64,000 nucleotides of DNA from Escherichia coli. Lineage in GTDB: Bacteria; Pseudomonadota; Gammaproteobacteria; Enterobacterales; Enterobacteriaceae. Where the stretch lies: assembly GCF_041248615.1 (NCBI RefSeq), contig NZ_CP158426.1, one strand, 5' to 3'. A program made the position numbers and the translations under genes. The stretch's first letter is position 1. The number at the start of each line of letters is the position of its first letter. Of the stretch, positions 22,278 to 50,132 are shown in pieces. Under the pieces are notes generated by a model. The model did no database searches and was not told where the DNA came from. It saw only the letters and a list, made by a program, of their open reading frames with translations.

Positions 22278-22672
22278 GAGTTCCCCGCGCCAGCGGGGAT
22301 AAACCGGCTGATGCGGTTCTATCACCACCACAAATTATGAGTTCCCCGCGCCAGCGGGGATAAACCGCAAATACGCGCGAGTGGCTAACCTGGAATCATG
22401 AGTTCCCCGCGCCAGCGGGGATAAACCGGCGCGGACGATAATCAGGGGCAGGCAGGGCACGAGTTCCCCGCGCCAGCGGGGATAAACCGGAAATCCAATA
22501 TTAACGTGGTGTTTTCAAAACGAGTTCCCCGCGCCAGCGGGGATAAACCGCGTTTAGCTCCGCAATGCTGGATATCACTGATGAGTTCCCCGCGTCAGCG
22601 GGGATAAACCGTATGGGAAACAGTAGCAACGGGCACACTGGCGGAGTTCCCCGCGCCAGCGGGGATAAACCA
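22278..22672 (+). CRISPR. Orphan type I-E CRISPR array (CRISPR-II / 2.1): 7 repeats, 6 spacers of 32 bp, leader on the left
   Basis: 29-bp repeat GAGTTCCCCGCGCCAGCGGGGATAAACCG at 61-bp period; repeat 6 has the GCGTCAG variant; last repeat ends ..AAACCA; AT-rich leader with GTTGGTAGATTGT at 22221-22233. Confidence 0.95.
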
Positions 22673-23140
22673 CCATATAACCCGTAATCTCTTTCTAAAG
22701 TTTTTATATTAGCAGTACTCGTAATAAGCAACATATCCACGTAACACCTCATGTTCAAAATAGCTCTCCATATATGAGAAGTTCACAATTATCGATACAA
22801 AAAATCAAATTTAATTAAAGTGTTAGTTGTATAATACTTAAATCATTAAGAAATTATCATATATTATTTTTTTAATATTGAATTGATGTTTGTTAGTTTT
22901 TTCTTTAGGATAATAGATTGTTTTTTAAGCTTATTATTCATTGATTAAGTAATAAATCTGGAAATTTGTCTTTGTTTTGAGGCTAATGAGTGGTTTTACA
23001 TAACCGTCTCTATAGACTGTTGATGAATAGTTCTTATGAATAAAGATATCCAGTTCATACTTTAAATGAAAATTGATAAAGTACGGTTTGCGTTGTCTTT
23101 TATTCTAAGGACATCGAGTGTAGTTAATATTCCTTGTAAC

Positions 23141-23265
23141 AACAGGGATAAACCGAACTAGTTAAAGTTTTTATTATGTTCCCTGCATCAGCGGGGATAA
23201 ACCGGACTTGTTATCATTTTTTAAGTTGTCGAACTTATGTTCCCCACGTCAGCGGGGATAACCAT
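23141..23265 (+). CRISPR. Degenerate CRISPR remnant (CRISPR 2.2-2.3-like): partial repeat, two degenerate repeats, one 32-bp spacer
   Basis: ..AACAGGGATAAACCG (23141-23155); ATGTTCCCTGCATCAGCGGGGATAAACCG (23176-23204); 32-bp spacer; ATGTTCCCCACGTCAGCGGGGATAACCA (23237-23264). Confidence 0.6.
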
Positions 23266-30152: not shown

Positions 30153-30909
30153 AGCCGAACCGGATGCCGGAATGCTGGCGGAAAAAGAGTGGCAGGCGGC
30201 GGCTCAGGGTAATAGCGGACCGGATGTTTCGCTTCTGCGAAGTTTACTCGGTGCTGATGAACAGGCTGCCGCCGCGCTGCTGTTGGCGCAGAGAAAAAAC
30301 GGTACGTCGATGTCCTTAACCGCGTTGAGCATGGGGGATGAACGGGCGTTGCACTGGCTGCGCTATCTCATGGCGCTTGGGTTTGAGGAAGCTGTATTGC
30401 TGGAGACGGCGGCAGATCTGCGCTTTGCGCCGGAATTTGTCGCTCGCCATATTGCCGAATGGCAGCGTCAGAATCCGCTGGATCTGATAATTACCGGCTG
30501 CCAAAGCAGCGAAGGGCAGAATGGGCAAACGCCATTTTTGCTGGCGGAAATGCTGGGCTGGCCCTGCTTCACCCAGGTGGAGCGTTTTACTCTCGACGCG
30601 CCGTTTATCACCCTCGAACAGCGTACTGAAAACGGGCTGCGCTGTTGCCGGGTTCGCTTGCCTGCGGTGATTGCCGTGCGTCAGTGCGGTGAAGTGGCCT
30701 TGCCAGTACCGGGAATGCGCCAGCGTATGGCGGCGGGGAAAGCAGAAATTATCCGTAAAACTGTTGCTGCCGAATCGCCAGCGATGCAGTGTCTGCAACT
30801 GGCAAGAGCAGAGCAACAACGCGGAGCGACGCTGATTGATGGGCAAACGGTAGCAGAAAAAGCGCAAAAGCTATGGCAGGACTATTTACGCCAAAGGATG
30901 CAGCCATGA
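30130..30909 (+). CDS. ygcR: Electron transfer flavoprotein beta-subunit-like protein YgcR
   Basis: ORF 30124-30909; start probably MNILLAFK at 30130; overlaps ygcS stop. Confidence 0.7.
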   Translation: MNILLAFKAEPDAGMLAEKEWQAAAQGNSGPDVSLLRSLLGADEQAAAALLLAQRKNGTSMSLTALSMGDERALHWLRYLMALGFEEAVLLETAADLRFAPEFVARHIAEWQRQNPLDLIITGCQSSEGQNGQTPFLLAEMLGWPCFTQVERFTLDAPFITLEQRTENGLRCCRVRLPAVIAVRQCGEVALPVPGMRQRMAAGKAEIIRKTVAAESPAMQCLQLARAEQQRGATLIDGQTVAEKAQKLWQDYLRQRMQP

Positions 30910-39369: not shown

Positions 39370-39522
39370 ATGCTGACAAAATATGCCCTTGTGGCAATCA
39401 TCGTACTGTGTTGTACAGTACTGGGATTCACGCTGATGGTAGGCGACTCGTTGTGTGAGTTGAGTATCAGAGAACGTGGTATGGAGTTTAAGGCAGTTCT
39501 CGCTTACGAATCGAAGAAGTAG
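39370..39522 (+). CDS. Hok/Gef-family small membrane toxin (50 aa), HokE-like; not in ORF track because shorter than 60 aa
   Basis: [50 protein letters not shown]: hydrophobic N-terminal helix, conserved Cys, Hok signature ..LCE..R...E..A.LAYE; mRNA-like 5' GGGUGCUUGAGGC and 3' GCACCC plus T-run. Confidence 0.7.
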
Positions 39523-39716: not shown

Positions 39717-42416
39717 ATGCGTAAATATCCTTTAAGTTTACTGAAGGATAAAAATATTGTGACTTTTTTTGATTTCTGGGGAAAAACCCGACGCGGCGAG
39801 AAAGACGGGGGCGACGACTATCACCTTCTTTGCTGGCATTCGCTGGATGTAGCCGCGATGGGCTATTTAATGGTTAAAAGCAATTGCTTCGGACTGGCTG
39901 ACTATTTTCGTCAATTAGAGATTTCTGACAAGGAACAGGCGGCTCAATTTTTCGCCTGGTTGTTGTGCTGGCACGATACTGGTAAATTTGCCCGCTCATT
40001 TCAGCAACTTTACCTGCACCCGAAACTCAGGGTTCCGGAAGGTGCTAGAAAAAATTACGAAAAAATCTCTCATTCAACGCTGGGCTACTGGTTGTGGCAT
40101 CATTATTTAAGTGAATGTCAGGAGTTACTTCCTTCCTCTTCACTCTCTCCCCGCAAACTTACACGTGTAATAGCGATGTGGATGCCCATAACTACCGGGC
40201 ATCATGGTCGCCCGCCTGACCGTATTGATGAACTGGATAATTTTCTGCCTGAAGACAAAGCTGCCGCGCGAGATTTTCTTCTTGAAATCAAACCACTGTT
40301 TCCGCTCATAGAGATCCCCGCATTCTGGGATGATGATGAGGGCATTGAACTTATAAAACACCTTTCCTGGTATATCTCTGCAACCGTCGTGCTCGCAGAC
40401 TGGACGGGTTCGTCAACGCGATTTTTTCCACGCGTCGCACACCCAATGGATATTAAAGGTTACTGGCAGAAAACTTTAGTTCAGGCTCAAAACGCCTTAA
40501 CCGTCTTTCCTCTAAAAGCAAAAGTCGCGCCTTTCACCGGAATTAATACGCTGTTTCCTTTTATTGAGAATCCGACACCGTTACAGCAAAAGGTGCTGGA
40601 TCTGGATATCAGCCAGCCAGGGCCACAGTTATTTATTCTGGAAGATGTGACTGGCGCAGGTAAAACGGAAGCGGCGCTTATCCTGGCGCACAGGTTGATG
40701 GCTGCGGGTAAAGCGCAGAGTTTGTTTTTTGGCCTGCCAACAATGGCAACGGCCAATGCCATGTACGATCGACTGGTCAAAACCTGGCTTGCTTTCTATT
40801 CGCCAGAGTCCCGCCCCAGCCTGGTGCTGGCACACAGTGCCCGAACATTAATGGACCGCTTTAATGAATCACTCTGGTCCGGTGATTTAGTCGGGTCAGA
40901 AGAACCGGATGAACAAACGTTCAGTCAGGGATGTGCGGCCTGGTTTGCCGACAGTAACAAGAAGGCGCTACTGGCTGAAATTGGCGTCGGCACGCTGGAT
41001 CAGGCGATGATGGCGGTGATGCCGTTCAAACATAATAATGTGCGGCTTCTGGGACTGAGTAACAAAATCCTGCTGGCTGATGAGATCCATGCCTGTGACG
41101 CTTACATGTCATGCATTCTTGAAGGGCTGATCGAGCGGCAGGCGCGTGGCGGAAACAGCGTCATTTTGCTTTCTGCCACGTTATCTCAACAGCAGTGCGA
41201 CAAACTCGTTGCTGCCTTTGCGCGTGGTACAGAGGGCCAGCAAGAAGCTCCGTTCCTGGAAAAGGATGATTACCCCTGGCTGACGCACGTTACGAAATCC
41301 GATGTGCATTCACACCGGGTAGCGACGCGCAAAGACGTTGAGCGTAGCGTGAGCGTGGGTTGGCTTCATAGCGAACAAGAATGTATTGCGCGTATCGAAT
41401 CGGCAGTAAGTCAGGGGAAATGCATCGCCTGGATCCGGAATTCTGTCGATGACGCTATTAAGGTTTATCGTCAGTTGCTTGCCCGCGGCGTCATTCCTGC
41501 TTCCAGCCTTTCTCTTTTTCATAGCCGCTTTGCTTTTAGCGATCGCCAGCGAATTGAAACGGAAACGCTGGCACGCTTCGGTAAAAGTTGTAGTTTACAG
41601 AGATCATCACAAGTCATTGTTTGTACACAAGTAATTGAACAAAGTGTGGATATTGACCTGGACGAAATGATCTCCGACCTGGCCCCTGTTGATTTGCTGA
41701 TCCAGCGAGCGGGGCGATTACAGCGGCATATCCGCGATATTAATGGTCAGTTAAAGCGTGACGGAAAAGACGAGCGTTCTCCTCCTGAATTGCTGATTCT
41801 GGCCCCCGTCTGGGACGACTCTCCGGGTGATGAATGGTTTGGCAGAGCCATGCGTAACAGTGCATATGTCTACCCCGATCATGGGCGAATCTGGCTGACG
41901 CAGCGTGTGCTGCGTCAGCAAGGCGCTATTCAGATGCCACACTCAGCCCGGCTTCTGATTGAATCAGTCTACGGTGAGGACGTGGTAATGGCGGAAGGGT
42001 TTGCCCGCAGCGAGCAGGAGCAAGTGGGCAAATATTACTGCGATCGCGCAATGGCTAAAAAGTTTGTCCTGAACTTCAAGCCTGGCTATGCCGCCAATAT
42101 CAACGATTACCTTCCGGAAAAGCTGTCGACACGTCTGGCGGAGGAGTCTGTTTCCCTGTGGCTGGCTACCTGTATTGCCAGTGTGGTGAAGCCTTATGCC
42201 AACGGTGCTCACGCATGGGAAATGAGCGTTGTCAGAGTGCGTCGAAGCTGGTGGAAAAAACATCGGGATGAGTTTTCTTTACTGGAAGGGGAAGCGTTCA
42301 GGCAGTGGTGCATTGAACAGCGGAAAGATCCGGAGATGGCAAACGTGATTTTAGTTACCGATGACGAAAGTTGCGGGTATTCGGCTATGGAAGGATTGAC
42401 TGGCAAGGTTGGTTGA
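39717..42416 (+). CDS. cas3: Type I-E Cas3 helicase-nuclease (HD plus DEAD/DEAH helicase), variant not of K-12 type
   Basis: 899-aa ORF with Walker A LEDVTGAGKTEA and DEIH-like motif; alternative GTG start at 39759 with AAGGA 10 nt upstream. Confidence 0.85.
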   Translation: MRKYPLSLLKDKNIVTFFDFWGKTRRGEKDGGDDYHLLCWHSLDVAAMGYLMVKSNCFGLADYFRQLEISDKEQAAQFFAWLLCWHDTGKFARSFQQLYLHPKLRVPEGARKNYEKISHSTLGYWLWHHYLSECQELLPSSSLSPRKLTRVIAMWMPITTGHHGRPPDRIDELDNFLPEDKAAARDFLLEIKPLFPLIEIPAFWDDDEGIELIKHLSWYISATVVLADWTGSSTRFFPRVAHPMDIKGYWQKTLVQAQNALTVFPLKAKVAPFTGINTLFPFIENPTPLQQKVLDLDISQPGPQLFILEDVTGAGKTEAALILAHRLMAAGKAQSLFFGLPTMATANAMYDRLVKTWLAFYSPESRPSLVLAHSARTLMDRFNESLWSGDLVGSEEPDEQTFSQGCAAWFADSNKKALLAEIGVGTLDQAMMAVMPFKHNNVRLLGLSNKILLADEIHACDAYMSCILEGLIERQARGGNSVILLSATLSQQQCDKLVAAFARGTEGQQEAPFLEKDDYPWLTHVTKSDVHSHRVATRKDVERSVSVGWLHSEQECIARIESAVSQGKCIAWIRNSVDDAIKVYRQLLARGVIPASSLSLFHSRFAFSDRQRIETETLARFGKSCSLQRSSQVIVCTQVIEQSVDIDLDEMISDLAPVDLLIQRAGRLQRHIRDINGQLKRDGKDERSPPELLILAPVWDDSPGDEWFGRAMRNSAYVYPDHGRIWLTQRVLRQQGAIQMPHSARLLIESVYGEDVVMAEGFARSEQEQVGKYYCDRAMAKKFVLNFKPGYAANINDYLPEKLSTRLAEESVSLWLATCIASVVKPYANGAHAWEMSVVRVRRSWWKKHRDEFSLLEGEAFRQWCIEQRKDPEMANVILVTDDESCGYSAMEGLTGKVG

Positions 42417-42513
42417 GATGCCTGCGACAGGGCTCTCTGAATAGTTGATACACCGAAAAGGATGGAATGATGGACAACCGACCTAGGATGGTCTTTTTTA
42501 CGAGAGGATGCGT

Positions 42514-44076
42514 ATGAACTCGTTTTCACTTCTGACAACCCCGTGGTTGCCCGTTCGTTATAAAGACGGAACGACAGGCAAACTGGCGCCTGTCGATCTG
42601 GCGGATGAAAATGTTGTCGATATTGCTGCGCCACGGGCAGATCTCCAGGGAGCGGCATGGCAGTTTTTGCTGGGGCTACTACAAACCAGCTTTGCGCCAA
42701 AAGATCATCGTCGTTGGGATGATATCTGGGAAGACGGACTGGAATCTGAAAAGCTACGGGAAGCATTGCTGTCCTTAGAACACGCTTTCCAGTTTGGGCC
42801 AGATTCCCCTTCATTTATGCAGGATTTCGAGGCGCTCACAGGAGATAAAGTTCAGGTCGCTTCGCTACTGCCTGAGATTCCCGGCGCTCAAACAACGAAG
42901 TTTAATAAAGACCACTTTATCAAGCGTGGTGTAACGGAATACCTGTGCCCACATTGTTCTGCGTTAGCTCTGTTCTCCCTACAGTTAAATGCGCCGTCAG
43001 GTGGTAAAGGCTACCGCACCGGTTTACGCGGCGGTGGGCCGATGACCACTCTGATTGAATTACAGGAATATCAGGGCAATCAACAAACGCCCTTGTGGCG
43101 CAAACTGTGGCTCAATGTGATGCCGCAGGACGAAGCCGACTTACCGCTACCCAAAAAATTTGACGATCTGGTTTTCCCCTGGCTTGGCCCGACGCGTACC
43201 AGCGAACTGGCCGGTGCGGTGGTAACCGATGATCAGGTTAATAAACTCCAGGCGTACTGGGGAATGCCGCGGCGTATTCGTATTGATTTTAATACCACGA
43301 CAGTCGGCAACTGCGATATTTGCGGCGAGCAGAACGACGCGCTCCTGAGCCTGATGACGACCAAAAATTACGGCGCGAATTATGCCATGTGGCAGCATCC
43401 CTTAACGCCTTACCGTGTACCCCTTAAAGAGGGCGGCGAGTTTTACTCGGTCAAACCACAACCAGGCGGTTTAATCTGGCGCGACTGGTTAGGCCTTATC
43501 GAAACGGGTAAATCAGAAAACAATACGGAACTTCCCGCGCTGGTGGTGAAACTCTTTAATGCCAGCAGTCTCAAGCAGGCAAAAGTGGGCCTGTGGGGAT
43601 TTGGTTATGATTTTGACAACATGAAAGCGCGCTGTTGGTACGAACACCATTTTCCGCTGCTGCTCGATAAAAAAGAAGGCCAGATACCGAAGCTGCGGCT
43701 GGCTGCGCAAACGGCTTCACGGATTCTGAGTCTGTTACGGAGTGCATTGAAAGAAGCGTGGTTCTCCGATCCAAAAGGTGCACGGGGTGATTTCAGTTTT
43801 GTGGATATCGACTTCTGGAACAAAACTCAGCATCGCTTCCTGAGGTTAGTGCGCCACATTGAAGAAGGTCAGGATGCGGATGAATTACTCAGCAAATGGC
43901 AAAAGGAAATTTGGTTATTCGCGCGTCAGGATTTTGACGAGCGTGTCTTCACCAATCCATATGAGCCCGTTGATTTGAAACGCGTCATGACCGCGCGCAA
44001 GAAATATTTTACAACATCGGCGGAGAAGCAAAATGCTAAAGCCGCCAGGGAGAAAAAGCAGGAGGCTGCTGAATGA
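42514..44076 (+). CDS. casA: Cascade large subunit Cse1 (CasA)
   Basis: ORF 42508-44076; second ATG 42514 has better spacing from GAGAGG; about 520 aa; position after cas3. Confidence 0.8.
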   Translation: MNSFSLLTTPWLPVRYKDGTTGKLAPVDLADENVVDIAAPRADLQGAAWQFLLGLLQTSFAPKDHRRWDDIWEDGLESEKLREALLSLEHAFQFGPDSPSFMQDFEALTGDKVQVASLLPEIPGAQTTKFNKDHFIKRGVTEYLCPHCSALALFSLQLNAPSGGKGYRTGLRGGGPMTTLIELQEYQGNQQTPLWRKLWLNVMPQDEADLPLPKKFDDLVFPWLGPTRTSELAGAVVTDDQVNKLQAYWGMPRRIRIDFNTTTVGNCDICGEQNDALLSLMTTKNYGANYAMWQHPLTPYRVPLKEGGEFYSVKPQPGGLIWRDWLGLIETGKSENNTELPALVVKLFNASSLKQAKVGLWGFGYDFDNMKARCWYEHHFPLLLDKKEGQIPKLRLAAQTASRILSLLRSALKEAWFSDPKGARGDFSFVDIDFWNKTQHRFLRLVRHIEEGQDADELLSKWQKEIWLFARQDFDERVFTNPYEPVDLKRVMTARKKYFTTSAEKQNAKAAREKKQEAAE

Positions 44077-44609
44077 GTATTGTAAAAGAGGAGCACAAAG
44101 CCACGCTGCGTAAATGGCACGAAGAGTTGCAGGAAAAACGCGGCAATCGTGCCAGTCTGCGGCGTAGCACAACGGTTAATGATGTTTGTCTGTCAGAAGG
44201 GTTTCGTTCTCTGCTGATGCAGACCCACACTTTGTGGAAAATTGAAGCACAAGAGTGGCGTTTTACCGCACTGGCGCTGGTCGCCGCAGTTAGCGCCAAT
44301 GTTAAAGCTATTGATGAACGGCAGCCTTTTGCCGCGCAGCTGGCGGCGGTAATGTCGGAGGGGCGTTTTACTCGCCTGTCGGCAGTAAAAACGCCTGATG
44401 ATTTACTGCGTCAGTTACGTCGCGCGGTCAAATTATTAAATGGTTCCGTCAATCTTATCTCTTTGGCAGAAGATATTTTCCGCTGGTGCCAGGAGAGCGA
44501 CGACCTGCTCAATCATCACCGCCGCCAGCAGCGGCCAACAGAATTTATCCGTATCCGCTGGGCGCTGGAATATTACCAGGCTGGCGACGCCGATAACGAA
44601 CAAAATTAA
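44073..44609 (+). CDS. casB: Cascade small subunit Cse2 (CasB)
   Basis: 178-aa ORF overlapping casA stop by 4 bp. Confidence 0.8.
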   Translation: MSIVKEEHKATLRKWHEELQEKRGNRASLRRSTTVNDVCLSEGFRSLLMQTHTLWKIEAQEWRFTALALVAAVSANVKAIDERQPFAAQLAAVMSEGRFTRLSAVKTPDDLLRQLRRAVKLLNGSVNLISLAEDIFRWCQESDDLLNHHRRQQRPTEFIRIRWALEYYQAGDADNEQN

Positions 44610-44623
44610 TAAAGGACTATCTC

Positions 44624-45679
44624 ATGACGACATTTATTCAGCTTCATTTGTTAACCGCTTACCCTGCTGCCAACCTTAACCGTGATGACACCGGTGCGCC
44701 AAAAACTGTGGTACTGGGTGGAGCAACGCGTCTGCGCGTTTCCTCACAAAGTCTGAAACGTGCGTGGCGCACTTCTGCACTTTTTGAACAGGCACTGGCG
44801 GGCCATATTGGTATTCGCAGTGGGCGTATTGCGCGTGAGGCGGCAACTATCCTGATTGAGAAAGGCATCGAAGAGAAAAAAGCCATCGAATGGGCGGCAA
44901 AAATTGCGGATTATCTTGGGAAAGCTAAAAACGACAAAAAACCAAAAGATCCGCTCACTAACGCCGAAACTGAACAGCTAGTCCATATCAGCCCGGCAGA
45001 ATTTGACGCCGTAAAAGCGCTGGCCCATCAACTGGCCGAAGAAAAGCGCGCGCCAAAAGAGGAAGATCTCGCTTTGTTACGTAAAGATCGCATGGCGGTA
45101 GATATCGCTATGTTTGGTCGTATGCTGGCGAATAAACCCGAATTTAATGTTGAAGCCGCCTGCCAGGTCGCGCATGCATTTGGTGTCAGTGAAACGATTG
45201 TCGAAGATGATTTTTTCACCGCCGTTGATGATTTGCGCCAGGCTTCTGAAGATGCCGGTGCCGGGCATCTTGGTGAAACCGGATTCGGTTCTGCGCTGTT
45301 CTACACCTATATCTGCATCGATAAAGATCTGCTGGTCGAAAACCTCGGCGGTGACGAAGCGTTAGCTAATCAGACCTTGCGCGCCTTTACGGAAGCCGCA
45401 CTTAAAGTCTCCCCAACCGGCAAACAGAACAGCTTTGCCAGCCGTGCCTACGCCTCCTGGGCGCTGGCAGAAAAAGGCACTGAACAACCACGCTCTCTGG
45501 CGGCGGCTTTCTATGAACCCATTAATGGCACCCGGCAGTTAGATGTGGCGGTGCAGCGTATTACAACGCTTCGCGAAAATATGAATACGGTCTATGAACA
45601 GAAGACCGAATGCGCAAGCTTTGACGTGATGAACAAACAGGGAAGCATGAAGGACGTGCTGGACTTTATCTGCGCGTAA
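44624..45679 (+). CDS. casC: Cascade backbone subunit Cas7e (CasC)
   Basis: 351-aa ORF MTTFIQLHLLTAYPAANLNRDDTGAPK... Confidence 0.85.
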   Translation: MTTFIQLHLLTAYPAANLNRDDTGAPKTVVLGGATRLRVSSQSLKRAWRTSALFEQALAGHIGIRSGRIAREAATILIEKGIEEKKAIEWAAKIADYLGKAKNDKKPKDPLTNAETEQLVHISPAEFDAVKALAHQLAEEKRAPKEEDLALLRKDRMAVDIAMFGRMLANKPEFNVEAACQVAHAFGVSETIVEDDFFTAVDDLRQASEDAGAGHLGETGFGSALFYTYICIDKDLLVENLGGDEALANQTLRAFTEAALKVSPTGKQNSFASRAYASWALAEKGTEQPRSLAAAFYEPINGTRQLDVAVQRITTLRENMNTVYEQKTECASFDVMNKQGSMKDVLDFICA

Positions 45680-45689
45680 GGGGCGGCTA

Positions 45690-46436
45690 ATGAGCCAATA
45701 TTTGATTTTTCAGCTTCATGGGCCAATGGCATCCTGGGGCGTCGATGCCCCCGGCGAAGTGCGTCATACCCATGAACTGCCTTCGCGCTCAGCATTGCTG
45801 GGGCTGCTGGCTGCCGGGGTAGGGATTCGGCGTGATGATACCGAACGATTAAACGCGTTTAACCGCCACTATTCACTGGTGGTTTGCGCCAGCCGTAACC
45901 CGCGCTGGGCACGGGATTATCACACGGTCCAGATGCCAAAAGAGGTGCGTAAAGCGCGTTATTTCAGCCGTCGCGAAGAGTTGAGCGCCCCTGATCTTCT
46001 GAGCGCGATTATCTCCCGGCGCGACTACTACACCGATGCCTGGTGGATGGTGGCGGTGGCAACAACCCCCGATGCGCCTTACAGGCTTGAACAGTTGCAG
46101 GACGGTTTACGTCATCCGGTTTTTCCGCTTTATCTGGGGCGAAAAAGTCATCCGCTGGCGTTACCACTTGCGCCGTTACTGCTCGAAGGCAACGCGTCTG
46201 ATGTCTTACGTAACGCATACCAACAGTATCAGGATAGTTTCCGCGAACTGAAAGTCTCACTCCCGAAACTTCAGGATGAATGCTGGTGGGAAGGGGAACA
46301 CGACGGCCTGGTCGCGAGCAAAATATTACGTCGCCGGGATGTTCCTTTAAATCGTCAGCAGTGGCTGTTTGGGGAACGCACCATCAATCAGGGGCCGTGG
46401 CTCAGCAAGGAGGAACCATGTACCTCTCAAGAATAA
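45690..46436 (+). CDS. casD: Cascade subunit Cas5e (CasD)
   Basis: 248-aa ORF; operon position. Confidence 0.8.
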   Translation: MSQYLIFQLHGPMASWGVDAPGEVRHTHELPSRSALLGLLAAGVGIRRDDTERLNAFNRHYSLVVCASRNPRWARDYHTVQMPKEVRKARYFSRREELSAPDLLSAIISRRDYYTDAWWMVAVATTPDAPYRLEQLQDGLRHPVFPLYLGRKSHPLALPLAPLLLEGNASDVLRNAYQQYQDSFRELKVSLPKLQDECWWEGEHDGLVASKILRRRDVPLNRQQWLFGERTINQGPWLSKEEPCTSQE

Positions 46437-47064
46437 CCTTACATACCGGCCAGCTTTCGCCTGCGCAGTTGCTGCATCTGGTGGATCGCGGTGAATATGT
46501 AATGCATCAGTGGCTGTGGGATCTTTTTCCTGGCGGCAAAGAAAGGCAATTTCTTTATCGTCGGGAAGAACTCCAGGGGGCGTTTCGCTTTTTTGTCCTG
46601 TCGCAGGAACGCCCGGCGGAAAGTGATATTTTCACCATCGAATGCCGACCATTTGCGCCAGAGTTGCGTACCGGACAATCCCTTTGTTTCAACCTGCGGG
46701 CGAATCCAACAATTTGTAAAGCGGGCAAACGCCACGACTTGCTGATGGAGGCGAAACGGCAGGTGAGGGGGCAGGTGGAAGGAAGTGATGTCTGGTTGCA
46801 TCAACAACAGGCGGCGCTGGACTGGCTGGCAGCGCAGGGGGAAAGAAGCGGTTTTACACTACTGGATACCTCGGTCGATGCCTACCGACAACAGCAACTG
46901 CGGCGGGAAAACTCCCGGCAACTGATCCAGTTCAGTAGCGTGGATTATACGGGGATGCTTACGGTCACCGATCCTGGGTTATTTCTGCAACGTCTGAGCC
47001 AGGGGTATGGCAAAAGCCGCGCGTTCGGCTGTGGTCTGATGCTGATCAAACCCGGAGCAGAGGC

Positions 47065-47068
<4 letters not shown>
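46418..47068 (+). CDS. casE: CRISPR repeat endoribonuclease Cas6e (CasE)
   Basis: ORF 46280-47068; probable start MYLSRITLHTGQ at 46418 (216 aa), overlapping casD end; C-terminal G-rich loop GYGKSRAFGCG. Confidence 0.8.
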
Positions 47069-48278
<1,210 letters not shown>

Positions 48279-48374
48279 GTTATCTGTTCTTTAAAAATAA
48301 GGAAATGTTTTAATTTAGTTGGTAGATTGTTGATGCGGAATAAATTTTTTTAAAAACAGTTATGTATGCTTAGT

Positions 48375-49074
48375 GTGTTCCCCGCGTCAGCGGGGATAAA
48401 CCGGACTCAGTTTTTCCCTGCTGACCCTCCGAAGGGTGTTCCCCGCGTCAGCGGGGATAAACCGCCATGCCGCGCCAGCTCTGCGAAACAGCCCGCGTGT
48501 TCCCCGCGTCAGCGGGGATAAACCGATCCAAAGATAGTCGCCCCGATTGCCAAATTGGTGTTCCCCGCGTCAGCGGGGATAAACCGACGGTATTGTTCAG
48601 ATCCTGGCTTGCCAACAGGTGTTCCCCGCGTCAGCGGGGATAAACCGGCGGCACTAACGTGATAATCACGATCAATTATGTGTTCCCCGCGTCAGCGGGG
48701 ATAAACCGTGACGGTCCGAAAAAAGTTGGCTGAAGAAATTGTGTTCCCCGCGTCAGCGGGGATAAACCGGTTATTGCGTTTTCCTCACCTGCGGCGAGTC
48801 CGTGTTCCCCGCGTCAGCGGGGATAAACCGCATTCCGTGCAGCGGTCTGAATAATTGCCGCGGTGTTCCCCGCGTCAGCGGGGATAAATCGAGTAACGAC
48901 GAAAAAATACAGGCACGGGCCAGGTGTTCCCCGCGTCAGCGGGGATAAACCGATCCCCGCAGGTATCGCGCAGCTATCGATCGAGTGTTCCCCGCGTCAG
49001 CGGGGATAAACCGGACGCACTGGATGCGATGATGGACATCACTTGGAGTTCCCCGCCCCTGCGGTAGAACTCCC
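48375..49074 (+). CRISPR. Type I-E CRISPR array (CRISPR-I) adjacent to cas2: 12 repeats (last degenerate), 11 spacers of 32 bp
   Basis: 29-bp repeat GTGTTCCCCGCGTCAGCGGGGATAAACCG at 61-bp period; repeat 9 ends ..AAATCG; terminal repeat GAGTTCCCCGCCCCTGCGGTAGAACTCCC; leader 48279-48374 with GTTGGTAGATTGT at 48319-48331. Confidence 0.95.
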
Positions 49075-49094: not shown

Positions 49095-50132
49095 TCAAGA
49101 CGCCTTCGCCAGCTCCTTCACCAGCGGTAGCATTATCCGCATAACATCACGGCAGCGACGTTCTATTCTTCCAGGAAGTGCCTTATCAATATGTTGTTGA
49201 TTATCCAGTCTTACGTCATGCCAGCTATTTCCCGCAGGGAATGCAGCTGTTTTTGCGCGTTGCTGATAACCATCCTTATTCCCAAGATTCCAATTTGTTG
49301 CTTCTACCGAAAGTACGGCAATACCGGCTTTGTCGAAAACTTCGGCATCATTACAACAGCCAGTACCCTTCGGATAATTTTTATTCAAACCCGGATTGGT
49401 CGTTGCGGCAATTCCATGACTACGCGCAATTGCCAGCGCCCTGTCGCGCGTTAATTTCCTTACTGCTTCAGGGGTTTTTACACCGCTGTTGAAATACAAT
49501 TTATCGCCAACAATTAAGTTATCGAGATTAATCACCAGCAGCGTATTTTTCTTTTCGGTGTCACTCATCCGCTTGAGTAAATTCTCAGCGCCTAATTTCC
49601 CTTCCTCTTCGCCGCTGGTCGCCACAAATCGAATACCATACTCGGTAGGCGTATTTTTCAGGCGTTCTGCCAGTTCCAGCATGACACCTAAACCTGCAGC
49701 GTTATCATCCATTCCTTGTAACGTCAGTCCGCCGAGATTGGCATCGGCGTCAGCATCGCTCAGCGGGGCGTAAGTATCCAGATGCGCCATAATGATGATC
49801 TGCTGCGGCGCTTTGCCTTCATGAGCGGCAATCACCGTACTTCCCGTCACGTTATGCCAGCTCTTGCGATTATCGCGGGCGGTATAAATATACCGACTAT
49901 TAAATGTCCGAATATCACTGCGATAACCCATTTGCTGAAACTGTTGGCGAATATAATCGGCAGATAACATTTCTGCAGGAGTTCCGGTCATGCGTCCCGG
50001 AAAGAAAGTAGCAATATGTCGTGCCTGAGTATTAGCAAAATCGCCAGGTTTAGCTGACGAGGCGTGTACGGGGAGAATAAAGCATACGCCGAGCGCCAGG
50101 GCAGCGGTACGGTGGCGCAATGCGGAAAACAT
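49095..50132 (-). CDS. iap: Alkaline phosphatase isozyme conversion aminopeptidase Iap
   Basis: 345-aa ORF with signal peptide, M28-peptidase-like. Confidence 0.8.
   Translation of the reverse strand: MFSALRHRTAALALGVCFILPVHASSAKPGDFANTQARHIATFFPGRMTGTPAEMLSADYIRQQFQQMGYRSDIRTFNSRYIYTARDNRKSWHNVTGSTVIAAHEGKAPQQIIIMAHLDTYAPLSDADADANLGGLTLQGMDDNAAGLGVMLELAERLKNTPTEYGIRFVATSGEEEGKLGAENLLKRMSDTEKKNTLLVINLDNLIVGDKLYFNSGVKTPEAVRKLTRDRALAIARSHGIAATTNPGLNKNYPKGTGCCNDAEVFDKAGIAVLSVEATNWNLGNKDGYQQRAKTAAFPAGNSWHDVRLDNQQHIDKALPGRIERRCRDVMRIMLPLVKELAKAS

Follow-up and report, generated by a model that had tools for sequence, protein, structure and literature searches.

The cas-adjacent CRISPR array of Escherichia coli NRZ14408, a probable CRISPR2.1 of the I-E1 variant: spacer record and repeat history

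Introduction

The CRISPR array located between cas2e and iap in Escherichia coli NRZ14408 raises the question of which type I-E variant it represents, what its spacers record and how its intact repeats came to share a single hairpin loop. Arrays of type I-E are transcribed from the leader, and Cas6e cuts at the base of the repeat hairpin to give 61-nt crRNAs, in which a 32-nt spacer stands between a 5' handle (AUAAACCG) and a 3' handle that carries the hairpin. Cascade locates protospacers in DNA by their 5'-A(T/A)G flank, and these are then degraded by Cas3.

The array is, with a probability of roughly 0.85, the CRISPR2.1 (CRISPR-I) array of a type I-E system of the I-E1 / cas-EO / leader-A / CRISPR-A (GTG) variant, an estimate that extends to the function, spacer record and array history proposed below. 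As such it is an ordinary and already annotated array, and publications already cover its terminal unit, its repeat variants, its PAM and the kinds of element that it targets. It belongs to a carbapenemase-producing clinical strain, in which it holds a memory against P1-like phage-plasmids, elements that commonly carry resistance genes in E. coli, and none against the strain's own KPC-2 plasmids, p14408_1 and p14408_2. Its spacer order also provides a fine-scale lineage marker, with a sister genome (isolate 362) and four inferable deletions.

Locus and variant

The array lies in a 64,000-nucleotide stretch of DNA that was analysed as a whole (the window). The region is 100% identical to NZ_LT599825.1, the chromosome of E. 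coli NRZ14408, and the next best match among 5,426 complete genomes is 84% over the array. The locus comprises the following features:

39717..48278, + strand: type I-E cas operon, with cas3, casA/cse1, casB/cse2, cas7e, cas5e, cas6e, cas1e and cas2e (open reading frames and RefSeq)
48279..48374, + strand: leader of CRISPR2.1 (leader-A / L1 type), 96 bp, 76% A+T
48375..49013, + strand: eleven intact repeats GTGTTCCCCGCGTCAGCGGGGATAAACCG with spacers 1-10 between them, 61-bp period (repeat finder, regex parse and direct reading agree)
48863-48891, + strand: ninth repeat, variant ATAAATCG (C27T), found elsewhere only in sister isolate 362
49095..50132, - strand: iap, the convergent flanking gene, which fixes the locus as CRISPR-I (RefSeq and open reading frames)

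The leader is situated between cas2 and the first repeat and the array between cas2e and iap, which is the position of CRISPR2.1. A preliminary description of this DNA, made from the sequence alone, had recognised a cas-adjacent CRISPR-I array, and both the cas2e-leader-array-iap order and the RefSeq annotation bear this out; its leader-proximal-first ordering of the spacers was also right, because the AT-rich leader adjoins cas2. A second array in the window (22278-22672), the CRISPR-II of NRZ14408, has GAG repeats.

All eight cas genes are annotated in NZ_LT599825.1 without pseudogene flags (RefSeq), giving a complete and intact cas-E set. Cas2 shows 85% identity to K-12 Cas2, which is consistent with a non-K-12 (E1/EO) variant, and the protein accessions of Cas1e and Cas2e are common to NRZ14408, 042, THO-008 and others. 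The leader matches that of O157:H7 PV15-279 at 91 of 96 positions and that of K-12 at 75 positions over 102 aligned columns (~74%). The O157:H7-type leader, the divergence of Cas2 from K-12 and the GTG repeat described below together point to the published leader-A / CRISPR-A / cas-EO (I-E1) variant (PMC3737337, PMC3903273). A simple promoter scan of the leader found no strict sigma-70 consensus promoter, and an Rfam search and promoter and terminator scans of the locus returned no match.

Repeats

The 29-nt repeats are exact copies of GTGTTCCCCGCGTCAGCGGGGATAAACCG in ten of eleven cases and differ by a single change in the other, and all ten spacings are 61 bp. Ten exact copies of a 29-mer and an eleventh that is nearly so, evenly spaced in a feature that RefSeq annotates as CRISPR, cannot be put down to chance. 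Each of the 11 spacers is 32 nt long and differs from the others; the preliminary description had listed 11 spacers of exactly 32 bp, and its sequences proved correct letter for letter and its coordinates exact. The repeats, in 11 copies, fit the published Type-2 consensus GWGTTCCCCGCGTCAGCGGGGATAAACCG / GWGTTCCCCGCG(Y)CAGCGGGGATAAACCG (29 nt; 28-nt duplicon), the first of these forms being the repeat consensus given in PMC3737337. Position 2 of the repeat is T (GTG) in all 11 intact copies, as in CRISPR-A; Díez-Villaseñor et al. use the opposite strand, on which the T of repeat position 2 reads as A. Under the current convention the last G of the repeat is derived from the PAM, which gives a 28-nt duplicon and 33-nt spacers (PMC3737337), and a G precedes all four protospacers found in this study, as that convention expects.

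The repeat is predicted to fold into a Cas6e-type stem-loop, with a 7-bp stem and a GUCA tetraloop (-15.2 kcal/mol, z -3.8). Hairpins with this loop (T-loop, GUCA) and with the alternative GCCA (C-loop) have equal predicted stability, and both variable positions lie outside the stem. From its sequence, the C27T change in the ninth repeat would give the crRNA of spacer 9 (sp9) the 5' handle AUAAAUCG.

Terminal anchor unit

The iap end of the array is formed by a spacer and a degenerate repeat:

49014..49045, + strand: spacer 11 (sp11), the species-wide 'anchor' spacer, with 0-3 differences in K-12, O157:H7, 042, FDAARGOS_1287 and others
49046..49074, + strand: degenerate terminal ('anchor') repeat GAGTTCCCCGCCCCTGCGGTAGAACTCCC, with 18/29 identity to the array repeat

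The two correspond to the published anchor tandem, which is independent of the cas-E variant (Almendros et al. 2014, PMC3903273). The tandem occurs in ~4,200 of the 5,426 complete genomes; the genome search gave ~4,270 chromosomal places, the majority of them sp11 and most at 90-95% identity. It adjoins iap in every array examined (K-12, O157:H7, 042, THO-008, FDAARGOS_1287, CT30 and the cas-less NCTC9100) and is found in strains of both cas-E variants, K-12 being E2. The view of the terminal repeat as an old relic, put forward in the preliminary description, is supported. The RefSeq CRISPR feature ends at 49013, leaving out sp11 and the last repeat.

The terminal repeat begins with GAG in NRZ14408, K-12 and 042 and with GAA in O157:H7 and FDAARGOS_1287, position 2 being A throughout; the resemblance of its GAG start to the second array had been noted from the sequence and holds. 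It is without the Cas6e-type 7-bp hairpin and is predicted to fold as a palindrome (GAGUUC..GAACUC, -12.6 kcal/mol). As the repeat downstream of sp11 is without this hairpin, the anchor tandem probably yields no mature crRNA, and sp11 had no phage or plasmid protospacer among 50,697 phage and 72,556 plasmid records. A role of the terminal repeat as the iap terminator was rejected, its hairpin being followed by no T-run on either strand.

Spacer targets

The spacers, in order from the leader, are as follows:

48404..48435, + strand: sp1 (newest), only in the arrays of NRZ14408 and isolate 362
48465..48496, + strand: sp2, only in the arrays of NRZ14408 and isolate 362
48526..48557, + strand: sp3, common to ~30 E. 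coli arrays
48587..48618, + strand: sp4, upfA of P1-like phage-plasmids, beside repA/oriR, 32/32
48648..48679, + strand: sp5, matches in arrays only
48709..48740, + strand: sp6, matches in arrays only
48770..48801, + strand: sp7, prophage gene beside the tail-tip J gene in strain JNE151685, 31/32, PAM ATG
48831..48862, + strand: sp8, matches in arrays only
48892..48923, + strand: sp9, prophage 'gateway protein' gene in the head/tail module of STEC384 and STEC379, 32/32, PAM ATG
48953..48984, + strand: sp10, prophage baseplate J/gp47 gene in seven genomes, 30/32, PAM ATG

All spacers, concatenated, were compared by BLAST with the 50,697 phage records and with the 72,556 plasmid records (the plasmids with and without sp4), and in two subsets with the 5,426 complete E. 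coli genomes. IMG/VR was scanned with mismatch-tolerant patterns that covered positions 1-26 of each spacer and left every sixth base as N.

The sp4 sequence matches upfA at 32/32 positions in 18 of the 19 matching phage records (P1, P7, RCS47, SJ46), and its target is present in ~600 plasmid records, at 601 plasmid places in complete E. coli genomes and in 76 IMG/VR contigs. The flank of this target is ATG in RCS47 and in 56 of the 76 IMG/VR contigs, and ACG in reference P1 and the other 20. Only sp4 has real phage or plasmid matches, the weak BLAST matches in Burkholderia, Skermanella and Levilactobacillus (E ~1-3) being rejected as chance. The sole mismatch of sp7 is at spacer position 24, which we take to be one of the every-sixth positions left unpaired by Cascade, and those of sp10 are at positions 15 and 32.

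The preliminary description had proposed inspecting protospacer flanks for AAG or ATG, and this check was productive, with a 5'-ATG PAM, within the 5'-AWG motif, at all four identified protospacers (sp4, sp7, sp9 and sp10). This agrees with the predominance of CAT (=ATG) in leader-A arrays, where it accounts for 34 of 55 cases (PMC3737337). Earlier encounters with P1-like phage-plasmids are recorded by sp4, and encounters with three kinds of prophage by sp7, sp9 and sp10.

For sp1, sp2, sp3, sp5, sp6 and sp8, nothing was found outside CRISPR arrays in the phage and plasmid records and the 5,426 E. coli genomes. The pattern scans of IMG/VR gave zero matches for these six and for sp9, counts that are meaningful for IMG/VR since sp4 served as a positive control with its 76 contigs, and sp1 and sp2 also had zero matches in metagenome and species-representative genome collections.

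Self-targeting and present function

Whether any spacer targets the strain itself, a point that the preliminary description could not settle, was answered by search. In the NRZ14408 chromosome the 11 spacers match no place except the array itself (genome search), and a scan allowing up to 8 mismatches found no match elsewhere in the window or over the full length of p14408_1, p14408_2 and p14408_3. The first of these plasmids (137 kb) is F-type with an IncN-type transfer region and carries KPC-2, the second (88 kb) is IncN and also carries KPC-2, and the third is 12 kb long. The length of p14408_M1 (238,073 bp, of which 1 kb was read) suggests that it is a cointegrate of the other three, which sum to 237,370 bp.

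From the behaviour of the type I-E family, we infer that the NRZ14408 array would be expressed, processed and used in interference. The type I-E system of K-12 is silenced by H-NS (PMC3737337), and given this silencing the array may be only a historical record. A stronger form of this explanation, in which the array is a silent genetic fossil without present defence and the strain's lack of P1-like elements and of matching prophages is coincidental, is a serious possibility, although we do not expect it to be correct. It agrees with the H-NS repression of E. coli I-E systems in the laboratory (PMC3737337, PMC10910852), with the age of spacers 3-10, which are common to ~40 genomes, with the outcome of the leader scan, which found no consensus promoter, and with the presence of large conjugative KPC-2 plasmids that no spacer targets. 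Against it stand the intactness of all eight cas genes and the lineage-specific sp1 and sp2, which show that spacers were gained after this line had separated from the other sampled arrays. Self-targets are also absent although ~600 E. coli plasmids carry the sp4 target, and Dion et al. 2024 argue that such arrays act against prophages (PMC10910852).

Origin of the T-loop array

The repeats of NRZ14408 carry the T-loop from the leader to the anchor, a state that is uncommon at the growth end of the array. A T-loop first repeat was found in 184 of the 5,426 genomes and the exact C-loop junction in 2,444. The T-loop is also an old state: a T-loop repeat is joined to the anchor in 1,482 genomes, and in the window both CRISPR-II and the CRISPR2.2 remnant have T-loop copies at their distal ends.

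The array shares ordered spacers with 10 related arrays, and spacers in these comparisons are numbered with the prefix s. The order in array A10 is s3 s4 s5 s22 s6 s23 s7 s8 s9 s10 s14 s15 C:s16 C:s17 T:s11, and sister arrays retain two C-loop units between the leader-side T-loop block and the anchor. Spacer s17 occurs in ~1,000 arrays, and in the two of these that were sampled (CT30 and NCTC9100) only the repeat preceding the anchor is not C-loop. The sister array is that of isolate 362 (NZ_OW967178.1, Madrid), which has s1 and s2, the C27T change in the repeat ahead of sp9 and the iap allele in common with NRZ14408. These sequences would place the loop states of the NRZ14408 clade in the order T (at the anchor), then C, then T again, and such an order would need either recurrent mutation at one site or recombination.

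The evolution of the array would have proceeded by insertion of each unit at the leader by Cas1-Cas2, with duplication of the leader-proximal repeat, in keeping with the published observation that new repeats are replicas of that repeat (PMC3737337). In a C-loop ancestor, a C-to-T change at loop position 13 of the leader-proximal repeat would then have passed to all later units. The subsequent transition to NRZ14408 would have involved the loss of units by repeat-repeat deletion, namely s22 and s23 (a loss common with isolate 362), s12-s13 and the block s14-s17. Deletion of this last block, of four units, would have removed both remaining C-loop repeats, so that NRZ14408 would be uniformly T-loop because of the units it lost. 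This scenario presupposes that acquisition takes place strictly at the leader end.

The spread of the T-loop variant through the array, as suggested in the preliminary description, is partly upheld. The leader-side T-loop block is secondary, as the C-loop units in sister arrays are older, but the variant would not have spread across existing repeats, and the GAG of the terminal repeat is no evidence for one, being a single base amid 11 mismatches. A primitive, always all-T-loop array in NRZ14408 was rejected, since its closest relative, isolate 362, keeps C:s16 and C:s17 where they are expected.

A different origin of the leader-side T-loop block, by recombination, would have it imported with a cas-leader-array module from a lineage still bearing the ancestral T-loop, by a crossover within the array, or produced by collapse of the array onto the T-loop anchor followed by regrowth and recombination. 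The oldest intact repeat has the T-loop, as do old units of CRISPR-II and of the CRISPR2.2 remnant, and E. coli arrays are documented to recombine and to exchange cas-leader-array modules (PMC3903273). The Res13 array is T-loop at its proximal end, and its distal end is linked by spacer s30 and the iap allele to FDAARGOS_1287, whose array is all C-loop. Despite these points we consider recombination unlikely, as one C-to-T transition in the leader-proximal repeat is the simpler course, spacer order agrees among the sampled T-loop arrays and has the C-loop units in the old position where they are expected, and no breakpoint has been demonstrated.

A more specific proposal appears improbable, in which the anchor unit seeds a reset of the array or donates sequence by gene conversion, with the array collapsing onto the anchor repeat and regrowing, so that the T-loop at the growth end is not a chance back-mutation; if true, the anchor would have a role in array turnover that can be demonstrated. 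A milder version would be that the T-loop lineage acquires spacers only beside ATG (4/4), as against the mixed AAG/ATG reported for cas-EO.

GTG and GAG repeats

The mutation and deletion history preferred here concerns the loop; the base at position 2 of the repeat is considered next. The repeat before the anchor spacer combines GTG with T at loop position 13 in NRZ14408, 042, FDAARGOS_1287, CT30, NCTC9100, O157:H7 and K-12. In K-12 this anchor-adjacent repeat reads GTGTTCCCCGCATCAGCGGGGATAAACCG, and all younger K-12 repeats are GAG/GCCA. As the anchor-adjacent repeat is GTG even in K-12, the polarity seen within CRISPR-I is GTG before GAG. The two forms are published module variants, CRISPR-A/leader-A/cas-E1 and CRISPR-T/leader-T/cas-E2 (PMC3737337, PMC3903273), of which E1 is held to be primary and the GAG/leader-T/cas-E2 module of K-12 to be a later insertion into a pre-existing array (PMC3903273). 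The suggestion made from the sequence alone, that GTG spread after the origin of the array, is contradicted by these observations, the oldest intact repeat being already GTG, in K-12 and O157:H7 included.

It is very improbable that the ancestral CRISPR-I repeat was instead GAG with a C-type loop, and that a GTG/T-loop form appeared afterwards and made the array uniform. Such an ancestor would fit the A found at position 2 of every terminal repeat examined, the GAG repeats of the NRZ14408 CRISPR-II array and the youth of the leader-side T-loop block relative to the two C-loop units of sister arrays. Against it, the anchor-adjacent repeat of every strain examined, K-12 among them, combines GTG with a T at position 13, and the T-loop repeat is joined to the anchor in 1,482 genomes but forms the growth end in only 184. 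The literature has GTG/leader-A/cas-E1 as primary, with the K-12 GAG module inserted later (PMC3903273). With mismatches at 11 of its 29 positions, the terminal repeat lends little weight to any one base, and a conversion mechanism is unneeded, since new repeats copy the first repeat (PMC3737337). With GTG as the older state of the intact repeats, the terminal repeat could, in its A at position 2, preserve a still older, pre-E1 state.

Comparison with known systems

The kinds of target found here have been described for the species. Dion et al. 2024 (PMC10910852) report E. coli spacers against P1 and prophages, with ~60% of spacers assigned by means of larger custom datasets. The NRZ14408 spacers are like those in their temperate-element targets and in the absence of self-targeting, and differ in the proportion assigned, which is 4 of 10 non-anchor spacers in NRZ14408 against the ~60% given there.

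The closest known system is the CRISPR2.1 of O157:H7 type (I-E1; Díez-Villaseñor et al. 2013, PMC3737337; Almendros et al. 2014, PMC3903273), which has the same cas2-leader-array-iap locus and GTG repeat. It also shares with NRZ14408 the leader (91/96), the eight cas-E genes, 32(33)-nt spacers, the ATG (CAT) PAM and the anchor at the iap end. The two differ at loop position 13 of the growth-end repeats, which is T (GUCA) in NRZ14408 and C (GCCA) in O157:H7 and most strains, and in their spacers, the set of NRZ14408 being strain-specific, with sp1 and sp2 present in just one other genome. The anchor tandem takes the form GAG...ACTCCC in NRZ14408 and GAA...ACACCC in O157:H7, and nothing else of substance separates them.

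The CRISPR-I of K-12 (I-E2 / cas-EK / leader-T / CRISPR-T) is like that of NRZ14408 in chromosomal site, anchor spacer, degenerate terminal repeat, repeat length and hairpin. It is unlike it in having GAG repeats, a leader ~74% identical and a Cas2 85% identical to those of NRZ14408, and AAG (CTT) only as its preferred acquisition motif, and the anchor is the sole spacer that the two arrays have in common.

Repeat variation in the arrays

The second array and the nearby remnant lie in the window as follows:

22278-22672, CRISPR-II (CRISPR2.3), seven repeats of the form GAG..GCCA with six spacers of 32 nt each
23127-23265, CRISPR2.2 remnant, approximately 450 bp downstream of the CRISPR-II array, with repeats of the form ATG..(A/G)TCA

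Within CRISPR-II, repeat 6 carries the T-loop (GTCA) and ACCA forms the end of the last repeat. In both arrays, therefore, the T-loop occurs at the old end: in repeat 6 of CRISPR-II and in the (A/G)TCA repeats of the CRISPR2.2 remnant.

In the main array, the degenerate terminal repeat (window 49046-49074) is a palindrome, with GAGUUC..GAACUC around CCGC/GCGG, and has a predicted folding energy of -12.6 kcal/mol (z of about -5). U26 is paired with the A at position 2 in the predicted fold. The terminal repeat reads GAA in O157:H7 and FDAARGOS_1287, which breaks a pair, and there is therefore no covariation. No T-run lies 3' of the palindrome, so that the terminal repeat is not an obvious terminator. 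Because the RefSeq CRISPR feature stops at window 49013, both this repeat and the species-wide anchor spacer sp11 (together window 49014-49074) are unannotated. The ninth repeat (window 48863-48891) carries C27T, a change found elsewhere only in the sister isolate 362 (NZ_OW967178.1); with it, the crRNA of the ninth spacer, sp9, would have the 5' handle AUAAAUCG.

Spacer targets and plasmids

The protospacer of sp4, the fourth spacer of the main array, lies in upfA and has an ATG flank in most P1-like elements; the flank is ACG in reference P1 (NC_005856.1, 1499-1533) and in 20 of the 76 IMG/VR contigs with an sp4 match. This difference could be a PAM-escape polymorphism. Spacer s17 (GGTAAAAACACGGTCTGAACCGACATTCATGT) is present in approximately 1,000 E. 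coli arrays, with no copy in NRZ14408, and matches plasmids at 88 places (including NZ_JBWIFL010000004.1 30565-30596), from which its target appears to be a common plasmid or phage-plasmid.

Among the NRZ14408 plasmid records, p14408_1 and p14408_2 are each annotated with blaKPC-2 in the same surrounding resistance region. At 238,073 bp, p14408_M1 is about as long as p14408_1, p14408_2 and p14408_3 combined, which points to a cointegrate of these three smaller plasmids or to another form of their assembly. The three smaller plasmids have no match to any CRISPR spacer.

Beside the cas operon, the annotation places a toxin gene of the Hok/Gef family at window 39370-39522, with cysH on one side and cas3 on the other; Almendros et al. 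2014 (PMC3903273) mention a hok/sok system for the cysH-cas3 intergenic region.
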